NCBI GenBank assembly: GCA_963745075.1
Contig: CAVUWV010000013.1
Coordinates: 64,001-128,000 of the forward strand
Length of the DNA: 64,000 nucleotides
Origin: Candidatus Hydrogenedentota bacterium
Lineage (GTDB): Bacteria; Hydrogenedentota; Hydrogenedentia; Hydrogenedentales; SLHB01
Reading direction: 5' to 3'
Made by a program: the position numbers and the translations under genes. The notes under the pieces were generated by a model. The model was not told where the DNA came from. It saw nothing but the letters and a program-made list of their open reading frames with translations, and made no database searches. Each line of letters begins with the position of its first letter. The stretch's first letter is position 1. Of this stretch, positions 1 to 15,547 are shown in pieces.

Positions 1-355
1 TCGGCCTATTGGCTGGCTTATTCATCGGCTACATCGAGAACTTGGCGCGGGTGGCGTGGCTGCGAGATTGATGCGCGGGCCTTTAGCCGGCAAACAGTTT
101 AATCTTTACAAAAGCCCGATGATTATTGGCTCTACTCCACGAGCAGACATATATCTCTTCAAAGACCCTAGTATTTCACCCGAACACGCCTCAATTACTA
201 TCACTGGATCCAAATTCTTGTTGACCGACATGAACAGTCAATCCGGAGTATTCGTAAATGGTAGGCGTATTACTAAATGCATTCTCCAAAAGGGAGACGT
301 TGTGACCTTAGGTCAAACGGTGCTCAAGTACGACGATCGAGAAAAGAGGGGGTAA
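1..355 (+). CDS. Membrane-associated FHA-domain protein, 5'-truncated by the window edge, apparent frameshift near nt 66
   Basis: ORF 56-355 has FHA signatures (IIGS..RADI, SISPEHA, DMNSQSGVFVNG, LQKGDVVTLG). Frame 3 from nt 3 reads a hydrophobic GLLAGLFIGYIENLARVAWLR that joins LMRGPLAGKQF after a shift. Confidence 0.8.
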   Translation, partial: RPIGWLIHRLHRELGAGGVAARLMRGPLAGKQFNLYKSPMIIGSTPRADIYLFKDPSISPEHASITITGSKFLLTDMNSQSGVFVNGRRITKCILQKGDVVTLGQTVLKYDDREKRG

Positions 356-362
356 TACGGCT

Positions 363-1099
363 TTGCCAGCGATTAAGTTCCGGTGTCCGTCGTGTGGGAA
401 GACGATGCGAGCACCAATCGAAAGGGCTGGTTCCAAGGGTAAGTGTCCTGACTGTCTTTCCCCTATAGTTGTTCCAAGGCCAGTGTTCCAAGCAGTAGAA
501 CGTCCTTTTGCACAGCCGAGTTCTTCTGCCCCCGGGAACCGGTTTCTAATCGGACTCTGCCTGAGCGAATGCGTGCGAATCGTACCATCGCGGGAGAATA
601 TGTCCTCAATGCCACACCGAGATCGAGTTTAGGGGATCCCATCGTCAATTGCAGGGACTGCGACGTTAGCTCCCACGAACATTGTTATGAACGGGTTGGT
701 AGCTGTCCGAACGTCGAATGTCGCTCGCAATCAAATCCGCCACCTACACCCGCAAGCGGAACGCAGCAAATAGCACAAACAGCACCGGAACTTTCGGGAC
801 CCACAATATCCTGCCCATATTGCGGTGAAGCCATAATGGCCACCGCGAAGAAATGCAAATATTGTCAGGAATGGCTCGACGAATCTCTCCGAAAAATTAA
901 TGAGCGGATGGGTAAGAACGAGGACGACAACATGACGGCGGTTAACGTCCTGTTGTGCGTCTTCTGCTCAGGTATCGGCTGCGTTATGGGATTGATTTAC
1001 GCAATACAAGGCAAAAAGAAGGGGTGGAAGATGATGGTGTTAAGTATTGTCATTTCCTTCCTCTTCAGTCTGCTGAGAGCTATTATGGAGGAGTCGTAG
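363..1099 (+). CDS. Zn-ribbon + prokaryotic RING finger (Prok-RING_1-like) + Zn-ribbon + 2-TM membrane protein, reconstructed across three homopolymer indels
   Basis: N-terminal CPSC...CPDC. Joining frames at ~530, ~592 and ~629 gives ICPQCHTEIELGDPIVNCRDCDVSSHEHCYERVGSCPNVEC (C2-C...C2C-H-C-C-C), then CPYCGEAI...CKYC and two hydrophobic helices. Confidence 0.7.
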
Positions 1100-1102
1100 C
1101 CA

Positions 1103-1719
1103 ATGGCAGCGCCTAGTAATAAACCACACAGAGCTGGTCGGCGCGAGGCAGGACAAACCTGCCTTATCTGTCACGTACCGATCATTATTGGCGAATGGCT
1201 CACCTCATGTTCATCATGCAAGCTCCACTACCACCTCGAATGCTGGAATGAGAACGGTGGCTGCGCTCAGTACGGTTGCGACCAGGCTCCCGATGCAGAG
1301 CAATATGAAACGAATCAATTCCAGTCAAACGTGTGGGCCGAGGACAAGACGTGCCCAACTGCCATCAACGCATCAAGGCCGTGGCACTGAAATGCAGGTT
1401 TTGTGGGACGCTATTTGAAACGAGAGACTATGTCTCACAAGACGATTTCGCTAAACGTGAATATCGAGACCGAGAATATACGTTTGCACGAAATGCTCTC
1501 GTCCTTTTGTTTCTTCTCTCGATTACCGGATGTCTCAGCCCTGTCGCATTGATATTGCACCTCATCCTACGCTACGGCGGCCGTCTGGGTAGCAAGCTCG
1601 AGTTTAACCGATTTCCAGATGAACTCAAGGCCCTGAACCTGATAGGGCTCGTAATGAGTGGCGGACTTGTGGCTTTGGGCTTTCTTGCCTTATTGCTTCA
1701 AGCCTCACAGAGTATCTAA
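1103..1719 (+). CDS. Prokaryotic RING finger + Zn-ribbon + TM membrane protein, one frameshift at ~1355
   Basis: GQTCLICHVPIIIGEWLTSCSSCKLHYHLECWNENGGCAQYGC. Adding one C to the CCC run at ~1354 gives KTCPNCHQRIKAVALKCRFCG followed by hydrophobic segments. Confidence 0.75.
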
Positions 1720-1739
1720 AGCGGAGATGTTGAAGTTAC

Positions 1740-3014
1740 ATGGTGGCTTCGGAAGCAAGAGCTGAACATGAAAGGTGAGACCTGCCCAGCATGTGGTCGA
1801 TGCTTTGAGGTCGGTGAAGTTGGTTTCCACTTGCGAAGAGTGCCTCGCTGTTTATCATGTGCTGTGTTGGGAATCCGCGGGGGGGTGTGTCAACTGTTTC
1901 TCGGCCTGCTTCAAGCCCAGAGCACACTATAAAGTCCGAACCGGACCTTGTGATCTATGGATACGAAGCGCGTATGGCAAAACCACCTCCCCCTGGTATG
2001 CCCGTCCGACCAGCGGAAGAAGTCGCGGCGGAATTCGCGCCAAGGTCTTCGGTGGCGGGTAAGTGGCTGACCGGGGTAGCTGTATTCGCAGCGGTCCTGT
2101 CCGTAATGGCAATTCCAGGAGCCATTAGTGAGAACCTTCCCATGGTATTCGTGGGCGTTGTTTCGGCGGTTGTCGGAATCACGGTTGGAATCGCGGCTGC
2201 AATTCTCGCATGGACACAACATAGGTTTTGCCCTCTGTCCGTTGGTTCGGTGGTGATAAGTTGCTCAGTAATACTTGTGACAGGATTCGTGAGTGATCAT
2301 GTGTCAAGGGAAGATTCCCTATACGGTACAGGTATCACGGAACTGGAAAACTCGCAACTAACCGAAGCGCAACTTGCGAATCTTCCTGCTCCAATCGCCA
2401 ATGCCTTGCGGGCAAATGTTCTTATAGTGCATAAACGTCTCACGGAGACGACTTACGGGTCCGGAACGATTACTCGTGTCGCAGAGGGAAAAGTCTATAT
2501 ACTGACAAACAGACATGTATTGGGGGACGGCCAAGTCACAATTCACTTCTACTCTGGACAGTCTACCCGTGGTGAGATCGTATGGTTGGCACCGGGAGAC
2601 ATTGATCTTGCGTTTGTTGTATGTCACGCCGAGACAAACGTCGATTTTCCGGGCATTACAGTTCTTGATGGTCAAATGAATCCTGGCAATGGCTCCTTTG
2701 CCGTCGGCAATCCGATGCATCTGCCATGGACTTACACGAATGGCGCAATTTCTTCTGTTAGGTCTAGACAATACGGCGAACGGACGCTGTACGTGTACCA
2801 AACGCAGACTCCGATAAATCCTGGAAGCAGCGGTGGCGGGCTATATTCGGAAGACGGCGTATTGATCGGAGTCAATACCTGGACAGAAGATAAAGCTGTT
2901 TCTGAAGGTATTAACTTCAGCATTACAACAATGAGTCTTCTCGATTTGCTGCGTGAGGAGGAACTTCATCGTTTTATACGTGAAATCGCTACAATTGGCC
3001 AAGTAGAGGCATAA
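1740..3014 (+). CDS. Prokaryotic RING finger - 3 TM - trypsin-like (S1C/HtrA-type) serine protease fusion, N-terminus split by indels
   Basis: Reconstructed N-terminus ETCPACGRCFEVGE.VSTCEECLAVYHVLCWESAGGCVNC. ORF 1857-3014 has three hydrophobic helices and the protease triad motifs LTNRHV, DIDLA and INPGSSGGGL. No PDZ domain. Confidence 0.8.
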
Positions 3015-3050
3015 GGTGCTCGAACGAATAAGTGTGGAGATCTAGATCCT

Positions 3051-3934
3051 ATGAGCGTGCGTCTCAGACGGCTTACGTCAGATTATGAGAGAGTCCGAAC
3101 ACTATTTCAGGACAATCAACGGATTTGTTTAGTGGAAAAGACTGGGAAGCCGCCGGAGTACTACGTGTTTCAGTATCACGTGAGGAGTCTGCAGCAGGAC
3201 ATCGATTCAGGAACGTTACGGTGGGCCAACTCTTTTCGAGTTGAGATAAACTTACCAGGAACATACCCTCGCACATCTCCGCATTGCCGGGCGATTACAC
3301 CCGTGTTTCATCCGAATATCGCACCGCACTCCATCTGTATTGGCGACCATTGGGCCGCCGGTGAGTCCCTGGTAAACTTAATTGTTCGCATTGGCGAGAT
3401 GCTTGCCTATCAGTCGTACAACGTCAAAAGTCCTCTAAATGGAGATGCGGCACAATGGGCTGAAAAGAACAAGTCGCGTCTTCCGGTTGACCGTTTCGAC
3501 TTTTCCTCCTTACTTGCAAGAGGCGAAGTTTTGCGCGCCCACGAAGATCAGGTCAGCGGAGTATGCGCGAACTGCGGTCTCGAGGGGAGGGAGCTAAACT
3601 TCAGGTCTGCGTAAGTGGGCACACGACCTGCGAGGCTTGTCTGATACCCTGTGGACGATGTGGAAAACCAATGTGCATGGCCTGCGAGTTGATGAAATGC
3701 GATGTATGTGGTCAACCAACGTGCCCCCAATGCAGGGTGCGGTGCGCGATGTGCGGTAGCGTTGTATGCACTGATGACGCCACGCGGTGCAAAGTGTGCA
3801 AGGGGATTTATTGCCGTAATTGCTTGGTTAGGTGTTTCCGGTGCGGGTTTATCGTATGTATCAATCATATGAATAAGGTTAGGGACCCAGATGGCGAAAA
3901 GAAATTCGTTTGCAGTGTGTGCGGAAGCGATTGA
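3051..3934 (+). CDS. Ubiquitin-conjugating enzyme E2 (UBC fold) with a C-terminal RING-like/Cys-rich Zn-binding region, frameshift at ~3585
   Basis: RLRRLTSDY, YPRTSP, TPVFHPNI....ICIGDHW, SPLNGDAAQWA give the canonical UBC HPN motif and catalytic Cys. ORF 3563-3934 continues CANC... into CVSGHTTCEAC and tandem CxxC-x4-CxxC units. RBS GGAG upstream. Confidence 0.9.
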
Positions 3935-4418
3935 CAACGTGAGATTTGCCGACCCCGTACCGGGGGTGCGCAATCTGTCAAAGATTTTGCCGTTTACGTG
4001 GCAAGTCGAGCACAAAGCCTCGTCTCACTTAACTGCCATTATTCTGTTTGCATGTTTCGTTGGCTTTCCCTTCCTGTTGAATATTGAACAGCCCAACGGT
4101 ACGCAGGATAGTTGTGTGTCAATCGGTGGTCTGCAACTGCCCCGAATTTGCATGAGCCAAAGCTTGTTTGGAGTTCGGTGTCCAGGATGTGGTCTCACAC
4201 GGTCATTTGTCGCGCTAACTCACGGCGAATGGGCTGCCTCAATCCAACATCATCGACTAGGACCGGTGGTGTACCTGTACTTTGTCGCGCTGATCCTCTT
4301 TCATGCTTACGGTTTATTTGCACGTGCTCGGCCCTTGCCGCGGGGGCTGGTGTACGGTCACCAGATTGCCGCCTTAGTTCTAATTGGGGGGTTGTTCTTG
4401 ATTTGGGCGTTCCAGTAA
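3891..4418 (+). CDS. DUF2752-family membrane protein (true start may be GTG ~3939)
   Basis: C..Q.LFGVRCPGCGLTRSFVALTHG motif flanked by hydrophobic helices. Confidence 0.8.
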   Translation: MAKRNSFAVCAEAIDNVRFADPVPGVRNLSKILPFTWQVEHKASSHLTAIILFACFVGFPFLLNIEQPNGTQDSCVSIGGLQLPRICMSQSLFGVRCPGCGLTRSFVALTHGEWAASIQHHRLGPVVYLYFVALILFHAYGLFARARPLPRGLVYGHQIAALVLIGGLFLIWAFQ

Positions 4419-4469
4419 GGCGCATCAGAACACGTTGTTGGTCCGCGGTACGAAGACTCTAGGTATCGT

Positions 4470-4505
4470 CGAGTACGAGTACGAGACCGAGTAGGAAGTA
4501 CGATT
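4470..4505. repeat. Degenerate CGAGTA hexamer tandem repeat between convergent genes
   Basis: cgagta-cgagta-cgagac-cgagta-ggaagta-cgatt. Confidence 0.6.
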
Positions 4506-4545
4506 AACAGGACCCGAAAAGAGTTAATTTGCTCTAGCGTTACGG

Positions 4546-5697
4546 CTACTCGACCACCTGCTCGAATACCGCAAAATCGCCCGGATTCCACGCTTGCGCG
4601 ATGATGTAGAGTTTCCCGTCGAGAATGATCCCCGTGGCATTGTGGACGTGCTGGAAATTCTCCAACCCGAGTTCGGCCTTCGGCATAATGGTCGAAACCA
4701 CCTTTTCGTCTTCGAGGATGTAGATCGGCGCGCCGAGGTCGCGGTTCGGGCCGTGTAGGCAACCGACGATCATGTACGGACCCACATAGTCGACGTCACA
4801 GGGGAAAGCACCGGCCGGCACGTTCACGGTATCGCGATACTGGCCGAAACGCGTGAACCGCTCCAGCTCCGCATTGGGGCGATCCGAGACCACGAGGCGT
4901 TTCCGATCCGGCGAGACGGTGATTCCATGGCCCGTGCCGAACTGGCCGGGCGCGTCGCCTTTTCCGCCGAACACCAAGTCGTACCAATGGGACGCGAAGG
5001 GTTTGGTCGAGTCGATTTGTGCGGTCAGCACGTAATCCAAGTCCGAGTAGCCCGTCGTGATGTAGTAGAGCCCATTCAACTGCTCCACGTCGGTGGGCAC
5101 GAACTTTCCGCCGCCCGCGAAGTAGCCGTCCACCGTCGGTTCGTCGAAGCTGTGGCCGGTCGGCGTATCGAGGGTGTTGACCAGCTTTCCGTCCAACGTC
5201 GTCGTAAACACCTTGCCCGCGTCGTTGGCCGGGAAGACCAGGAACGGCGTGCCGTCCGGGTCGTACCAGATGGTGGTGTTGTGCTCGTTCGTGTCGCGCA
5301 CTTCGGGCGCCGTATCCAGGAGTTCCGTCGAGGCCAGGTCGGCGCTCATCTTGATGATGCCGGCCCCGGGCAACGCGAAATAAGTTTGGCCATAGCCTTC
5401 CCGACGATCCACGGCGAACCCGCCGTGCGCTTTCACGAGCACCTCGATGGCTTGCGCGGGTAGATGGTCGCTCGTGTACAGCACGCGGAATTTCAATTTG
5501 CCCTGCCCGCTGACCGCCGGCTCTGCACCGGTCCGCACCGCCGCCAACGGGAGCAGGTGCTGTGATACGTGGGACGCGACTTGTACGGCGGCGTCGTGAT
5601 CGTGATCGCCGTGGCCGGGATGGGCGAAGGCCGGAACGGCCACACCCATCGCTAACATCACCGCGACAAGCACAGAAATGCTGAATGAACGGAACAT
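4546..5697 (-). CDS. Secreted NHL-repeat-like/beta-propeller protein with a His-rich N-terminus
   Basis: ATG at 5697 with a GGAGAGG RBS. Signal peptide ends AFA-HPGHGDHDHD. GKGDAPGQFGTGHGITV and VSDRPN are NHL-like motifs. Confidence 0.65.
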   Translation of the reverse strand: MFRSFSISVLVAVMLAMGVAVPAFAHPGHGDHDHDAAVQVASHVSQHLLPLAAVRTGAEPAVSGQGKLKFRVLYTSDHLPAQAIEVLVKAHGGFAVDRREGYGQTYFALPGAGIIKMSADLASTELLDTAPEVRDTNEHNTTIWYDPDGTPFLVFPANDAGKVFTTTLDGKLVNTLDTPTGHSFDEPTVDGYFAGGGKFVPTDVEQLNGLYYITTGYSDLDYVLTAQIDSTKPFASHWYDLVFGGKGDAPGQFGTGHGITVSPDRKRLVVSDRPNAELERFTRFGQYRDTVNVPAGAFPCDVDYVGPYMIVGCLHGPNRDLGAPIYILEDEKVVSTIMPKAELGLENFQHVHNATGIILDGKLYIIAQAWNPGDFAVFEQVVE

Positions 5698-5950
5698 ACC
5701 AGGACCTCTCCCTCGGTTGGTTTGCCTTGCAAGCGCAAAGTATGGCAGGAATCGGTCGAGGCAGGCAAGTAGAAACACCGAAAGGCGGACGGTGTGCGGC
5801 TCGATTGATGACATCGCCGAGGGATATCTTGAACGCGACATGCAAAACGCAGTAGAACGTGGGACACATCCTGGCCGCCGCGGTGGATCGAATTCATTGG
5901 GCGGCTAACGATCGAGGCGAAATCGGTTGGATACTGGAAAGGGTACAGAC

Positions 5951-10235: not shown

Positions 10236-11418
10236 CTAGTGGTGTGATTTATAGTTGAGGGAATTTATCGTTTGTCGTATGCGTTCTGTATATAACTGGC
10301 TCGCAATGTGGAGAGGACCATGCGCATAGCAGCGAAGATACACCTCAATGAGGAAGAACAGCAAACACTGACGAAATGGTCGCGAGGACGCAGCACGCCG
10401 GCGCGCTTGGTGCAACGGGCTAAGATAATCCTGCTGGCAGAGCAAGGCCTGCAAAACAAAGATATCGCCAAAATGCTCGGCGTAATGGAACGAACGGTTG
10501 GGCGTTGGCGCGGGCGCTTTGCGAAAGGCGGCTTGGCGGTCATCGACAAAGACCTGCCCCGTGGCGGACGCCACGCCACAGAGCGCGAGAAACATGAGGC
10601 TTCCATCATCAAGAAGGTACAGGAAGAGAAGCCCAACAACGCCACCCACTGGACTACCCGTGAACTTGCCGAAGCTGTCGGAACCAGTCAGAACCTCGTC
10701 TTCCGCGTGCTGCGCGCCAACGGGCTCAAGCCGCACCTGGTGAAGACGTTCAAAGTCAGCAACGATCCGCGCTTCGAGGAGAAGCTGCGCGACGTGGTGG
10801 GATTGTACTTGAACCCACCCGAGCACGCGCTGGTGATTAGCGCCGATGAGAAGACATCGATTCAGGCACTTGACCGGACGCAGCCGGAACTGCCTATCAA
10901 GAAAGGCCGTTGCGGCACGATGACGCATGACTACAAGCGCAACGGAACGACCACGCTCTTTGCGGCCGTTGAGATGGCCGAGGGGCAGGTCATATCGACC
11001 TGCATGGACAAGCACCGCCATCAAGAATGGATCAAGTTCCTCAAGCTGATTGACAAGGAAACGCCGTCCGCCTTGGACGTCCATTTGATCGTGGACAACT
11101 ATGCCACGCACAAACACGAGAAGGTGAAGAATTGGCTGAAACGGCACCCCCGGTTTCATATCCATTTCACGCCGACCAGCAGCTCTTGGCTCAATGTCAT
11201 CGAAGGCTTCTTCGCCAAGCTCACCCAGAAACGTTTGCGCCGCGGCATCTTCAAGAGCGTCGCCGATCTGAAAAGGGCCATCAAAGAATTCATCGAGGCG
11301 CATAACCGGGACCCAAAACCTTTCGTATGGACAGCCACCGCAGAGAAGATCATCGAGAAAGTCGGCCGTGCGCGTATCGCAATGCATAATGATCCATCAG
11401 CTTAAATCAAACCACTAG
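10236..11418 (+). mobile_element. IS630-family insertion sequence
   Basis: Terminal inverted repeats CTAGTGGTGTGATTTA (10236-10251) and TAAATCAAACCACTAG (11403-11418), 15/16 match. The junctions fit a TA duplication in a CTAG target. Confidence 0.92.
10320..11405 (+). CDS. IS630-family DDE transposase
   Basis: HTH region, [45 protein letters not shown]. Confidence 0.95.
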
Positions 11419-13513: not shown

Positions 13514-15547
13514 ATGCATAGCGTATTACTGAGCGCGGTTCTGCTGATGTTGTCGGGACTACTACCCACTTCCGCTGCGGTTGCGTCTGGCATTCCATTT
13601 CCTGGTAAAGAGCCCGGCACGGCCAAGGCGGAACAGTCTGATAACAGCTTTACCCTGAGCAACGACGTCCTTTCAGCGCATTGGCGCGTGGATGGGGGCA
13701 AACTGCGGCTGACCGAATTCACGAACGCCTTGGCCTCCGCACCTGAGACCGCGACGGAAGGCGAGCCATTCGTCATCACCCTGACCACCGGCGACACGCT
13801 GAACGCATCGGACTGCGCGACAACGAGTGCTCCTCAAGTCGAACGGATCACCGGCCGTTCCAACGCCCGGCGGCTGGCCGACCGGAGTGGGGGAGCGCGC
13901 GTGTCTGTCGCGTTGGCCTCGCCCGACCAATCGCTGGACGTTACCTGGAAAGCGGAGTTGCGGGATGGCTCCAACTACGTGATCCAGCGTGTGACGCTCG
14001 TGCCCGTGAACGGAGATTTCCCGGTCGAGACGGTTCGCCTTATCGATGTGGTTGCACCGGCCGCGAAGGTGACTGGCGTGACCCAAGGCGCGCCGGTTGT
14101 GGCGGGAACGTGCTTCTTCGCGCTCGAGCATCCCATGTCGGAGAGTGTCGTCGAAGGCAGCCGTGTACGGTGCAGTTTGCACAGGGGTGAGCCGTTGGCA
14201 AAGGGCAAGCCGCTTGCGTTGTCCTCCGTCATGGGAGTGACGCCCCCGAACCAACTCCGGCGAGGGTTCCTGTACTACCTCGAGCGCGAACGGGCCCATC
14301 CCTATCGCCCGTTTCTCCACTACAACTCCTGGTACGACATCTCCTGGGGCGACCGGAAATTTAATGAGGCCCAGTCCATCGCGGCCATCGAAACCTTCGG
14401 TCGCGAACTGGTTGAGAAGCGCGGCGTGACGATGGACAGCTTCGTGTTTGACGACGGCTGGGACGACAATGCGACGTTGTGGCAGTTTCACGACGGGTTT
14501 CCGAACGGGTTCACACCATTGCGAAAGGCGGCGGAACGATACGGCTCTGCGCTGGGCGTTTGGTTATCCCCGTTCGGCGGTTACGGCGAAGCGCGGGAGC
14601 AACGCCTGAAATACGGGAGGGAGCAAGGCTTCGAGGTCAATCGCAACGGCTTTTCCCTGGCCGGTGAACGGTACTATAAGCGATTTCACGATATCTGCGC
14701 GGCGATGGTGCAAACGTACGGCGTGAACTTCTTTAAGTTCGACGGCATGGGCCCCGGAAATAACAAGGTCGGTGGCGAGGAGTTTCTGGATGATATCGAG
14801 GCGCTGATGCGATTGACGGATCAGTTGCGCGAATTGGAACCGGACCTTTTCGTCAGCGCCACGACCGGCACCTGGTGTACGCCGTACTTCCTGTGGCATG
14901 CCGACAGCACCTGGCGCAGCGCCAGCGACATGGATTTCTGCGGCAAGGGTTCCAAGCGCCAACAATGGATCAACTACCGCGACACGTATACCTACCAGAA
15001 CGTCGTGCAGCAGGGACCGCTCTATCCGCTCAATTCTCTCATGACCCAGGGGATCGTCCATTCGCAACACGGCCCTTCCGCGCTCATGGGGGGCAACCCC
15101 AAGGATTTCGCGGACGAGGTCTGGTCTTTCTTCGGAAGCGGCACGGACCTGCAAGAACTCTACATCGCGCCCCAACTGCTTACAGCACAGATGTGGGACA
15201 TCCTGGCCGCGGGCGCCAAGTGGTCACGCGAGAATGCCGATGTCTTGGTCGACACCCATTGGATTGGCGGGGACCCCGGCCAAAACGAAATCTACGGGTG
15301 GGCGTCCTGGTCGCCGCGAAAGGCGATCCTCGTACTGCGCAACCCGGACGACAAACTGGCGACTATCACGATCGATATCGGACACGCTTTTGAATTGCCG
15401 GATGGCGCAACGCGCGACTACCGCCTGCAGTCGCCCGGCCCAAGCGCACAGCAGACGGAGGTGATAGAGGTTGCCGCGGGGCAGCCCCACACCATCTCCC
15501 TGGATGCATTTCAGACGGTCGTCTACGACGCCGAGCTTACGCGCTGA
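13514..15547 (+). CDS. Secreted glycoside-hydrolase-like protein (GH36/alpha-galactosidase-like TIM barrel)
   Basis: Signal peptide. HYNSWYD, FVFDDGWD, LGVWLSP and FFKFDG motifs. Confidence 0.7.
   Translation: MHSVLLSAVLLMLSGLLPTSAAVASGIPFPGKEPGTAKAEQSDNSFTLSNDVLSAHWRVDGGKLRLTEFTNALASAPETATEGEPFVITLTTGDTLNASDCATTSAPQVERITGRSNARRLADRSGGARVSVALASPDQSLDVTWKAELRDGSNYVIQRVTLVPVNGDFPVETVRLIDVVAPAAKVTGVTQGAPVVAGTCFFALEHPMSESVVEGSRVRCSLHRGEPLAKGKPLALSSVMGVTPPNQLRRGFLYYLERERAHPYRPFLHYNSWYDISWGDRKFNEAQSIAAIETFGRELVEKRGVTMDSFVFDDGWDDNATLWQFHDGFPNGFTPLRKAAERYGSALGVWLSPFGGYGEAREQRLKYGREQGFEVNRNGFSLAGERYYKRFHDICAAMVQTYGVNFFKFDGMGPGNNKVGGEEFLDDIEALMRLTDQLRELEPDLFVSATTGTWCTPYFLWHADSTWRSASDMDFCGKGSKRQQWINYRDTYTYQNVVQQGPLYPLNSLMTQGIVHSQHGPSALMGGNPKDFADEVWSFFGSGTDLQELYIAPQLLTAQMWDILAAGAKWSRENADVLVDTHWIGGDPGQNEIYGWASWSPRKAILVLRNPDDKLATITIDIGHAFELPDGATRDYRLQSPGPSAQQTEVIEVAAGQPHTISLDAFQTVVYDAELTR

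Follow-up and report, generated by a model that had tools for sequence, protein, structure and literature searches.

A eukaryote-type E2 with a Cys-rich tail, probably a multi-zinc rod, in a bacterial ubiquitin-like conjugation operon

Positions 3051-3934 of the window (the whole 64,000 nucleotide stretch that was analysed, positions 64,001 to 128,000 of Candidatus Hydrogenedentota contig CAVUWV010000013.1) are a single bacterial gene encoding a eukaryote-type E2 with a Cys-rich tail, which confirms that the feature picked out in the original prediction is real. The reading favoured here, with rather better than even confidence, is that this is the E2 of an operon that also encodes Ubl, E1, JAB, FHA, and Prok-RING proteins, that its frame is split by a likely assembly error, and that its tail is a rod of about seven zincs, likely to act as a partner-binding or tethering arm and not as an E3. 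The parts of the gene are as follows.

3051..3488, + strand: UBC/E2 catalytic domain, residues 1-146 (Pfam PF00179, HPN and Cys, homologue model)
3489..3563, + strand: linker, the second half flexible (low pLDDT in the homologue model, variable in the alignment)
3564..3661, + strand: zinc-array cap (CANC ... C-x3-H-x2-CxxC-x3-CxxC), 'RING-HC-like', containing the break (sequence)
3576..3607, + strand: stretch with the single -1 frame break, G runs at 3582-3591 (frameshift-aware alignment, codon count)
3650..3934, + strand: five CxxC-x4-Cxx[C/H/D] units (period 15), a FYVE-like hairpin, and the final CxxC (sequence, fold prediction)
3564, 3608, 3629, 3650, 3674, 3698, 3722, 3743, 3767, 3788, 3812, 3833, 3857, and 3911, + strand: ligand pairs 1-14 (sequence)

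The ORF at 3051-3614 encodes 187 aa, including the UBC domain, and stops shortly past the CANC motif (3564-3575); the Cys-rich part continues in another frame, in the ORF at 3563-3934, with 13 further Cys/His pairs. Frameshift-aware alignment to 10 homologues finds exactly one -1 break, at about 3578, and no stops, which bears out the proposal that the two parts are joined across one indel; the gaggggaggg named in it is at 3582-3591. From CANC to the next Cys there are 32 bases in the window, as against 11 codons in 88 of 118 relatives, and intact relatives give two abutting tblastn matches, in different frames, at the window E2. That these are two separate genes was considered and rejected, full-length homologues having been sought and found: no full-length relative is split at this point other than the broken or contig-cut copies L041 and L016. 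Programmed frameshifting was also rejected, since the relatives have a plain open frame.

The UBC domain matches the Pfam UQ_con family (PF00179) with E 3.4e-11 and 43.3 bits, against a curated cut-off of 27, as do all 32 of the 32 homologues compared with this profile. The HPN motif (H87-P88-N89, at 3309-3317) and the catalytic Cys96 (3336-3338) are invariant across 111 homologues, and the model of homologue L006 aligns with eukaryotic E2s at Z 12.0-12.4, so that the core is, as had been said of it, eukaryote-like. On its sequence, the window E2 would be a putative thioester-forming Ubl-transfer enzyme.

The tail contains 14 ligand pairs, made up of 25 Cys, 2 His, and 1 Asp, within about 120 residues. 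There are six occurrences of CxxC-x4-Cxx[C/H/D], being the five units and one overlapping match, where shuffling gives a mean of 0.15 and none of 10,000 shuffles reached six. The number of units had been predicted correctly, but not their length of about 13 residues, the period being 15 residues (16 in the first unit). The whole 14-pair pattern is kept by 118 of the 120 best protein matches, and among 142 E2 fusions the number of pairs ranges from 11 to 40, with 14 in 114 of these; membrane helices are present in 8 of the 142.

In the loci compared, which were the best 80 of 218 relatives in GTDB genomes, the E2 and the full array are in one ORF of 281-321 aa in 32 cases. The array is shorter in two others (L068, L079), cut by the contig end in L016, and broken in L041. 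It is replaced by a Pro-rich linker and one zinc ribbon in 41 of the 80, and three have another tail or none. The closest intact relative is P0119 (293 aa), with identities of 69% over the E2 part and 50% over the tail; a quick tree of bacterial rows only, from which L041 was excluded, places it as the sister of the window E2. Array and ribbon types are clustered in this tree, with 3 and 4 changes, in an order that the tree does not give. Carriers are found, among others, in records of Planctomycetota, Riflebacteria, Sumerlaeota, Verrucomicrobia, Lentisphaerota, Chloroflexota, and Bacillota.

Several relatives are built differently. In L013:818-3064 and L068:8234-10651 the upstream protease frame runs into the E2-array, with ORFs of 749 and 806 aa, a possible membrane protease-E2 fusion. 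The tail of the E2 in L030 (ORF from about 4135) is, by eye, a glyoxalase-like domain, and that of L083:1483-2562, in the operon of a member of this genome's family, is a zinc ribbon plus TPR-like helices. L084 is a further RING-E1-E2 cluster of a different kind, with its genes in the same order.

The AlphaFold2 model of full-length L006 has a pLDDT of 84.9 and pTM of 0.68, with a disordered linker (residues 159-166 below 50), while the tail alone gives 96.2 and 0.81. The tail-only model is made of short strands and turns, with no helix of four or more residues before the last one. Its knuckle-hairpin-helix-turn units superpose on solved cross-braced treble-clef fingers at three places: the best solved match is 5x6t for the start (residues 1-50, Z 5.0, rmsd 3.4) and 2yw8 for the end (residues 75-124, Z 5.3, rmsd 2.6), and the middle (residues 46-108) matches 2zet (Z 4.4). 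Overall, FYVE/Rab-effector fingers match about 50 residues at each of the three places with Z 4.3-5.3 and rmsd 2.3-4.4, Z values that are middling, as expected for small domains. No solved chain among the structures searched covers the whole tail. A PDB sequence search with the tail returned weak FYVE, TFIIH p44, and PHD matches, all with E 0.01 or worse, Foldseek returned nothing under E 0.001, with LIM domains ranked first, and no Pfam family matches the tail in the window protein and the 32 homologues scanned. Feature matches in the ESM Atlas are below 0.9 and are leads only; its structure matches are to HerA/DUF87, Mrr, and phage proteins. FYVE fingers carry a lipid-binding basic motif, and none was seen in the tail. 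The models support the suggestion that the tail folds as treble-clef units, and it is most likely an interleaved, length-variable rod of these with about seven zincs.

The order of the pairs reads K1 K2 H1, five K-H units, and H-last. If each knuckle shares its zinc with the helix-type pair one unit on, every pair is used and there are seven sites. The models display neither zinc nor coordinates, for which reason we infer this pairing. Covariation over 1282 three-unit windows from the stored array proteins places knuckle position 3 with the last ligand of the next unit at ranks 1 and 2, and the second knuckle Cys with the next first helix Cys at rank 9. Ligand co-loss gives a mixed picture, with odds ratios of 2.1 and 1.7 for a knuckle and the next helix pair, and of 1.65, 0.59, and 2.3 for pairs in the same unit, from windows that overlap and are not independent. 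The same pair order is kept in six-pair arrays (L068, the histidine kinases, and the membrane protein beside pspA described below). In binuclear treble clefs the half-sites alternate, and the second zinc site of FYVE and PHD fingers is itself treble-clef-like, according to the available part of PMC4999995.

The array is not confined to E2s. Among the 150 best array matches there is a cluster of 90 proteins without E2, of which 42 keep the cap; the identical cap is present in 39 E2-less proteins that belong to this cluster. The family is YqhG-like and matches the E2-tail profile at 99.7%; PF11079 (YqhG) itself was found in one of about 20 scanned, under cut-off at E 1.6e-5. These proteins (L095:4444-10067, L094:2-3533; P0125, P0139, P0149, about 90 representatives) have a YqhG-like N-terminus and a capped array, often of 25-60 pairs. 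The genomic context available comes from the loci of two near-identical proteins, for one of which the flanks extend 8 kb upstream and 92 bases downstream; here the array gene comes after AAA and SNF2 genes, and the three may possibly form an undescribed SNF2-associated system. A six-pair (three-zinc) array heads a membrane protein beside pspA (G000:C34:59669-60364, - strand) and hybrid histidine kinases in the family of this genome (L085-L093). HerA/DUF87-type ATPases (P0166, P0219, P0235, P0248, P0255) end in arrays of 22-32 pairs; P0219 is confirmed by Pfam, and the Atlas clusters of this type are archaeal. From these sequences, the zinc array appears to be a generic module used by several unrelated prokaryotic proteins.

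The genes around the E2 in the window are:

2..355, + strand: FHA end of a membrane-FHA gene that starts upstream of the window (Pfam FHA E 7e-18; homology across the window edge)
363..1099, + strand: Zn-ribbon / Prok-RING_1 / Zn-ribbon / TM gene, frame-broken, candidate E3 (Prok-RING_1 E 2.2e-5, under cut-off)
1103..1719, + strand: Prok-RING_1 / Zn-ribbon / TM gene, one frame break, candidate E3 (Prok-RING_1 E 1.3e-7, over cut-off)
1768..3014, + strand: Prok-RING_1 / TM / trypsin-like protease gene, frame-broken near its start, candidate E3-protease (Prok-RING_1 E 6e-5, under cut-off; Trypsin_2 E 5e-18)
3891..4418, + strand: DUF2752 membrane protein, last gene of the operon, true start perhaps further in (Pfam DUF2752 E 5e-17)

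Upstream of the window are the Ubl, a ThiF E1 (E 1e-48), the JAB protease, and the start of the membrane-FHA gene. The Ubl, E1, JAB, E2, and RING genes form a single co-oriented cluster, which has the same order in related loci, many of which also have a DUF2752 gene after or near the E2. A Prok-RING-like motif is present in 25 of 25 array loci with at least 3.5 kb upstream and in 31 of 37 other loci. The operon Ubl ends in QPEITAGGFCKQ, and QPEITAG lies in the last 14 residues of at least 28 of 43 related Ubl ORFs, being the C-terminal end in six. PADLOC gave partial, generic matches only for the operon E1 and JAB, and the E2 matched none of its models (BilB, BubB, and Cap2 E2s), with no PADLOC match for P0001, P0002, or P0119.

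The operon is 50.5% GC in a genome of 59.1%, and is seen as a low-GC insertion of about 9 kb (L001:15230-20000 and window 1-4545, on G000 C13) between a sensor-kinase gene and the gene at 4546-5841. These flanking genes are adjacent, 30-100 bases apart, in the congeners G001, G002, G003, and G005, and are on different contigs in G004. The E2 is the only one of its kind in the genome; none of the five congeners searched has a close E2, and one of the 36 family members searched does, with a different tail. The adjacency of the flanking genes in four of the five congeners, together with the lack of a close E2 in these, indicates that the operon was inserted recently. Dispersed short repeats are present at the upstream edge of the insertion (L001, about 15240-15540), and there are short tandem gagtac-like hexamer repeats near both ends (window 4460-4500, L001:15895-15930). 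An intact transposase, which we take to be IS630-like, is at window 10308-11405.

The E2 is not the only interrupted gene of this operon. About 12 frame breaks and no nonsense codon were seen over six consecutive operon genes (window 1-3600 and L001:18064-20000), and frameshift-aware alignment from the FHA gene through the E2 finds 11 breaks and no stops in about 4.6 kb. At about 2.4 per kb, breaks here are roughly 20-fold more frequent than the genome background, for which 27 breaks were counted in 240 kb of conserved genes (about 0.11 per kb) and 21 of 191 genes are broken or have indel errors in comparison with a congener. The breaks may be real, in which case the recently inserted operon would be a decaying pseudogene cluster in this strain. 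Such decay must be allowed for because of the excess over background, which is concentrated in a horizontally acquired island, and it is perhaps also suggested by the intact Ubl, E1, and DUF2752 genes alongside. Against it, neutral decay accompanied by 11 breaks would be expected to give 2 to 6 stops, on a rough estimate from typical mutation spectra, and there are none. Several of the breaks are located at G or C runs, and the catalytic residues and 27 of the 28 ligand positions are canonical in the window copy. An artefact is the better explanation of indels without nonsense codons in genes whose catalytic and ligand residues are intact, and decay is considered unlikely. A further sign of indel errors in the assembly is tuf, which is split by a frameshift at L001:6246-7437. 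Public read-derived contigs from one run, with at least 99% identity, are five short pieces that span none of the breaks; a second run gave one distant piece and a third gave none, so that 3451-3600 is covered by none of the six compared. By our own estimate from the sequence evidence, the break in the E2 is probably an assembly error. The pseudogene explanation would in any case apply to this copy alone, and any role of the tail could be combined with it.

As regards that role, the original prediction offered either an E2-E3 fusion, by way of a RING-HC-like module, or an E2 with its own zinc array. The C3HC4-like spacing after CANC, on which the first of these was based, is as described, with eight ligands in order (CANC, C-x3-H, CxxC, CxxC). 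A related explanation is that the cap is a stripped-down, helix-less RING docked in cis on the RING-binding face of the E2, either as a built-in E3 or as a blocking mimic displaced by a membrane Prok-RING. Besides the spacing, pair 4 is CPxC in 47% of 120 E2-fused proteins, and the cap is always beside the E2 in E2 fusions, separated from it by a linker of 15-25 residues. E2-fused caps conserve CANCG (Asn 99%) and CLKC (Leu 92%), which YqhG-like caps do not, and this E2-specific conservation suggests a specific partner. When the full-length model is superposed on 8v0d, an engineered UbcH5B-MIB1 RING3 fusion and the top Foldseek match (175 residues over 2-226, rmsd 4.2), the cap falls on the RING; the RING in that chain is not necessarily the one on the RING face of that E2. 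The pose between the domains is uncertain (pTM 0.68; 0.53 for the Atlas model), and AlphaFold may put any zinc finger at a learnt RING site.

Pairs 3 and 4 of the cap are separated by only 3 residues in all 118 full matches, so that the central helix of a RING is absent; indeed there is no helix between them in either the full-length or the tail-only model, and none of the 32 full-length homologues has a match to a RING Pfam family even at E up to 1. RINGs match tail residues 1-45 at Z of 3.0 or less, level with C1, GATA, LIM, and B-box. The MIB1 RING binds its E2 canonically, with contacts at Val965, Met989, Pro993, Ile994, and Arg996 (10.1101/2024.03.01.582834, available part). Compared with these contacts, the hydrophobic residues and the Arg after the last CPxC are mostly absent from the cap, the first knuckle having A in 80% and N in 99% of the 120 proteins, and the residue after pair 4 being G in 42%, H in 13%, N in 12%, and K in 9%. 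The cap is also shared by proteins without E2, the array is swapped for a ribbon in about half of the related loci, and the putative E3-binding residues of the E2 (R4, R7, L8, YPR, W101, G104, E105) are conserved to a similar extent whether the E2 is array-type (52 rows) or ribbon-type (19 rows), with near-copies removed. The fusion of E2 and E3 by way of a RING-HC module is therefore weakly supported and unlikely, a docked helix-less RING is held to be unlikely, and the tail is probably not an E3, which leaves the E2 with its own zinc array as the better of the two options. Were the cap docked in cis, bacteria would have a natural fusion of E2 and E3, or else an E2 that inhibits itself until a membrane Prok-RING displaces the cap, and the RING mimic would be made of a poly-cross-braced zinc repeat fold, so far uncatalogued, which SNF2-associated and HerA proteins also carry. 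Somewhat less probable again is that the array binds Ubl or Ubl chains and so makes conjugation processive. Some zinc fingers do bind ubiquitin, and one of the 32 homologues has a weak Pfam zf_UBZ match (E 0.039); the other 31 have none, and the array is common on proteins for which no ubiquitin context is seen. The 25 Cys in about 120 residues, and the six-pair version, which in this genome's relatives is at the head of histidine kinases and of the membrane protein encoded next to pspA, might also point to a zinc/redox switch in which oxidation leads to zinc loss, the rod unfolds, and the activity or location of the E2 changes. This is thought the most improbable of these explanations, since a binding arm would equally account for the regular structural fold and for its replacement by a single ribbon.

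In the favoured reading, that of a partner-binding or tethering rod, the JAB would trim the Ubl after the conserved QPEITAG, exposing its glycine, the E1 would activate the trimmed Ubl, and the Ubl would then form a thioester with Cys96 of the E2. As E3s, the three membrane-anchored C4HC3 Prok-RING proteins would act on the conserved helix-1/L4/L7 face of the E2 and direct transfer to targets at the inner membrane face, with the FHA protein perhaps a phospho-dependent scaffold. The tail would be a FYVE-type cross-brace lengthened from 2 to 7 sites, in the order K1 K2 H1 [K H]5 H-last, and this zinc rod, on its flexible linker, may be an exchangeable arm that keeps the E2 attached to either the membrane complex or a substrate. 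A targeting role is consistent with the relatives P0095, P0109, P0122, P0189, P0220, P0234, P0243, and P0249, in which E2-arrays of up to 40 pairs have C-terminal membrane helices, DUF4190, or FHA domains.

No description of the E2 and array architecture, or of the repeat fold, was found in the literature searched, although the text or supplements of Burroughs 2008, 2011, and 2012 may contain one; nor is an array protein described in the available parts of PMC11601596, PMC3417536, and PMC1779556. No experimental study of this operon type was found in the literature searched. Bacterial operons in which a eukaryote-type E2 occurs together with RING proteins are relevant to the origin of the ubiquitin system, and this E2 subfamily is a natural test, in that the same enzyme has a predicted seven-zinc rod in some members, one zinc ribbon in others, and no tail in others again. 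The rod, which is without a Pfam family and without a solved full-length structure among those searched, would merit a structure because it appears to extend a two-zinc cross-brace to between 3 and about 20 sites and to be used by several unrelated prokaryotic proteins.

The operon type is already known from comparative genomics. Tri-ligase Ubl operons with Prok-RING_1 (PF14446), JAB, E1, and a eukaryote-like E2 were reportedly described by Burroughs, Iyer, and Aravind in 2011, in Mol Biosyst. The window operon is like these in having Ubl, ThiF E1, JAB, E2, and RING-type genes together, and in its sporadic distribution, being missing in close relatives. It differs in that most Planctomycete versions retrieved have an E2 with a Pro-rich linker and one zinc ribbon, whereas the window E2 has the 14-pair array. 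The bacterial Ubl operon type with Prok-RING of Burroughs, Iyer, and Aravind (2011) is cited in the available parts of PMC4197634, PMC7159879, and PMC11354881. The Bil, Bub, and CBASS Cap2 systems have the logic of Ubl, E1, E2, and JAB in common with the window operon, but BilB has a CEHH site (PMC11354881, available part) where the window E2 has HPN.

Compared with eukaryotic UBC-fold E2s (PF00179; UBE2S, UBE2K, UBE2C, UbcH5/UbcH7), the window E2 has the same fold (Z about 12, rmsd about 3), HPN, the catalytic Cys, the YP-x-x-x-P loop, and the Trp after the Cys. It differs in having only about 20% identity to them, a loop from HPN to Cys that is 1-2 residues shorter, three residues absent after the Cys, YPR in L4, WAAG in L7, and the zinc-array tail. 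In RING-HC (C3HC4) E3 ligases, for which SIAH-type spacing and MIB1 RING3 serve as comparators, the first eight ligands are in the same order as in the cap and the first treble clef superposes weakly (Z 2.7-3.0), but the cap lacks the central helix and most of the E2-contact residues, and its pattern goes on as repeats. The FYVE/Rab-effector (Slp/RIM) fingers, which of the solved structures come closest to the tail at its start, middle, and end, have two zincs, a cross-brace that the tail would extend to about seven, and up to about 20 in relatives. The YqhG-like proteins (PF11079, weak) have the same cap and repeat register as the E2 tail, but are without the E2 domain, usually have longer arrays, and lie, in the two related loci available, in an SNF2/AAA neighbourhood.
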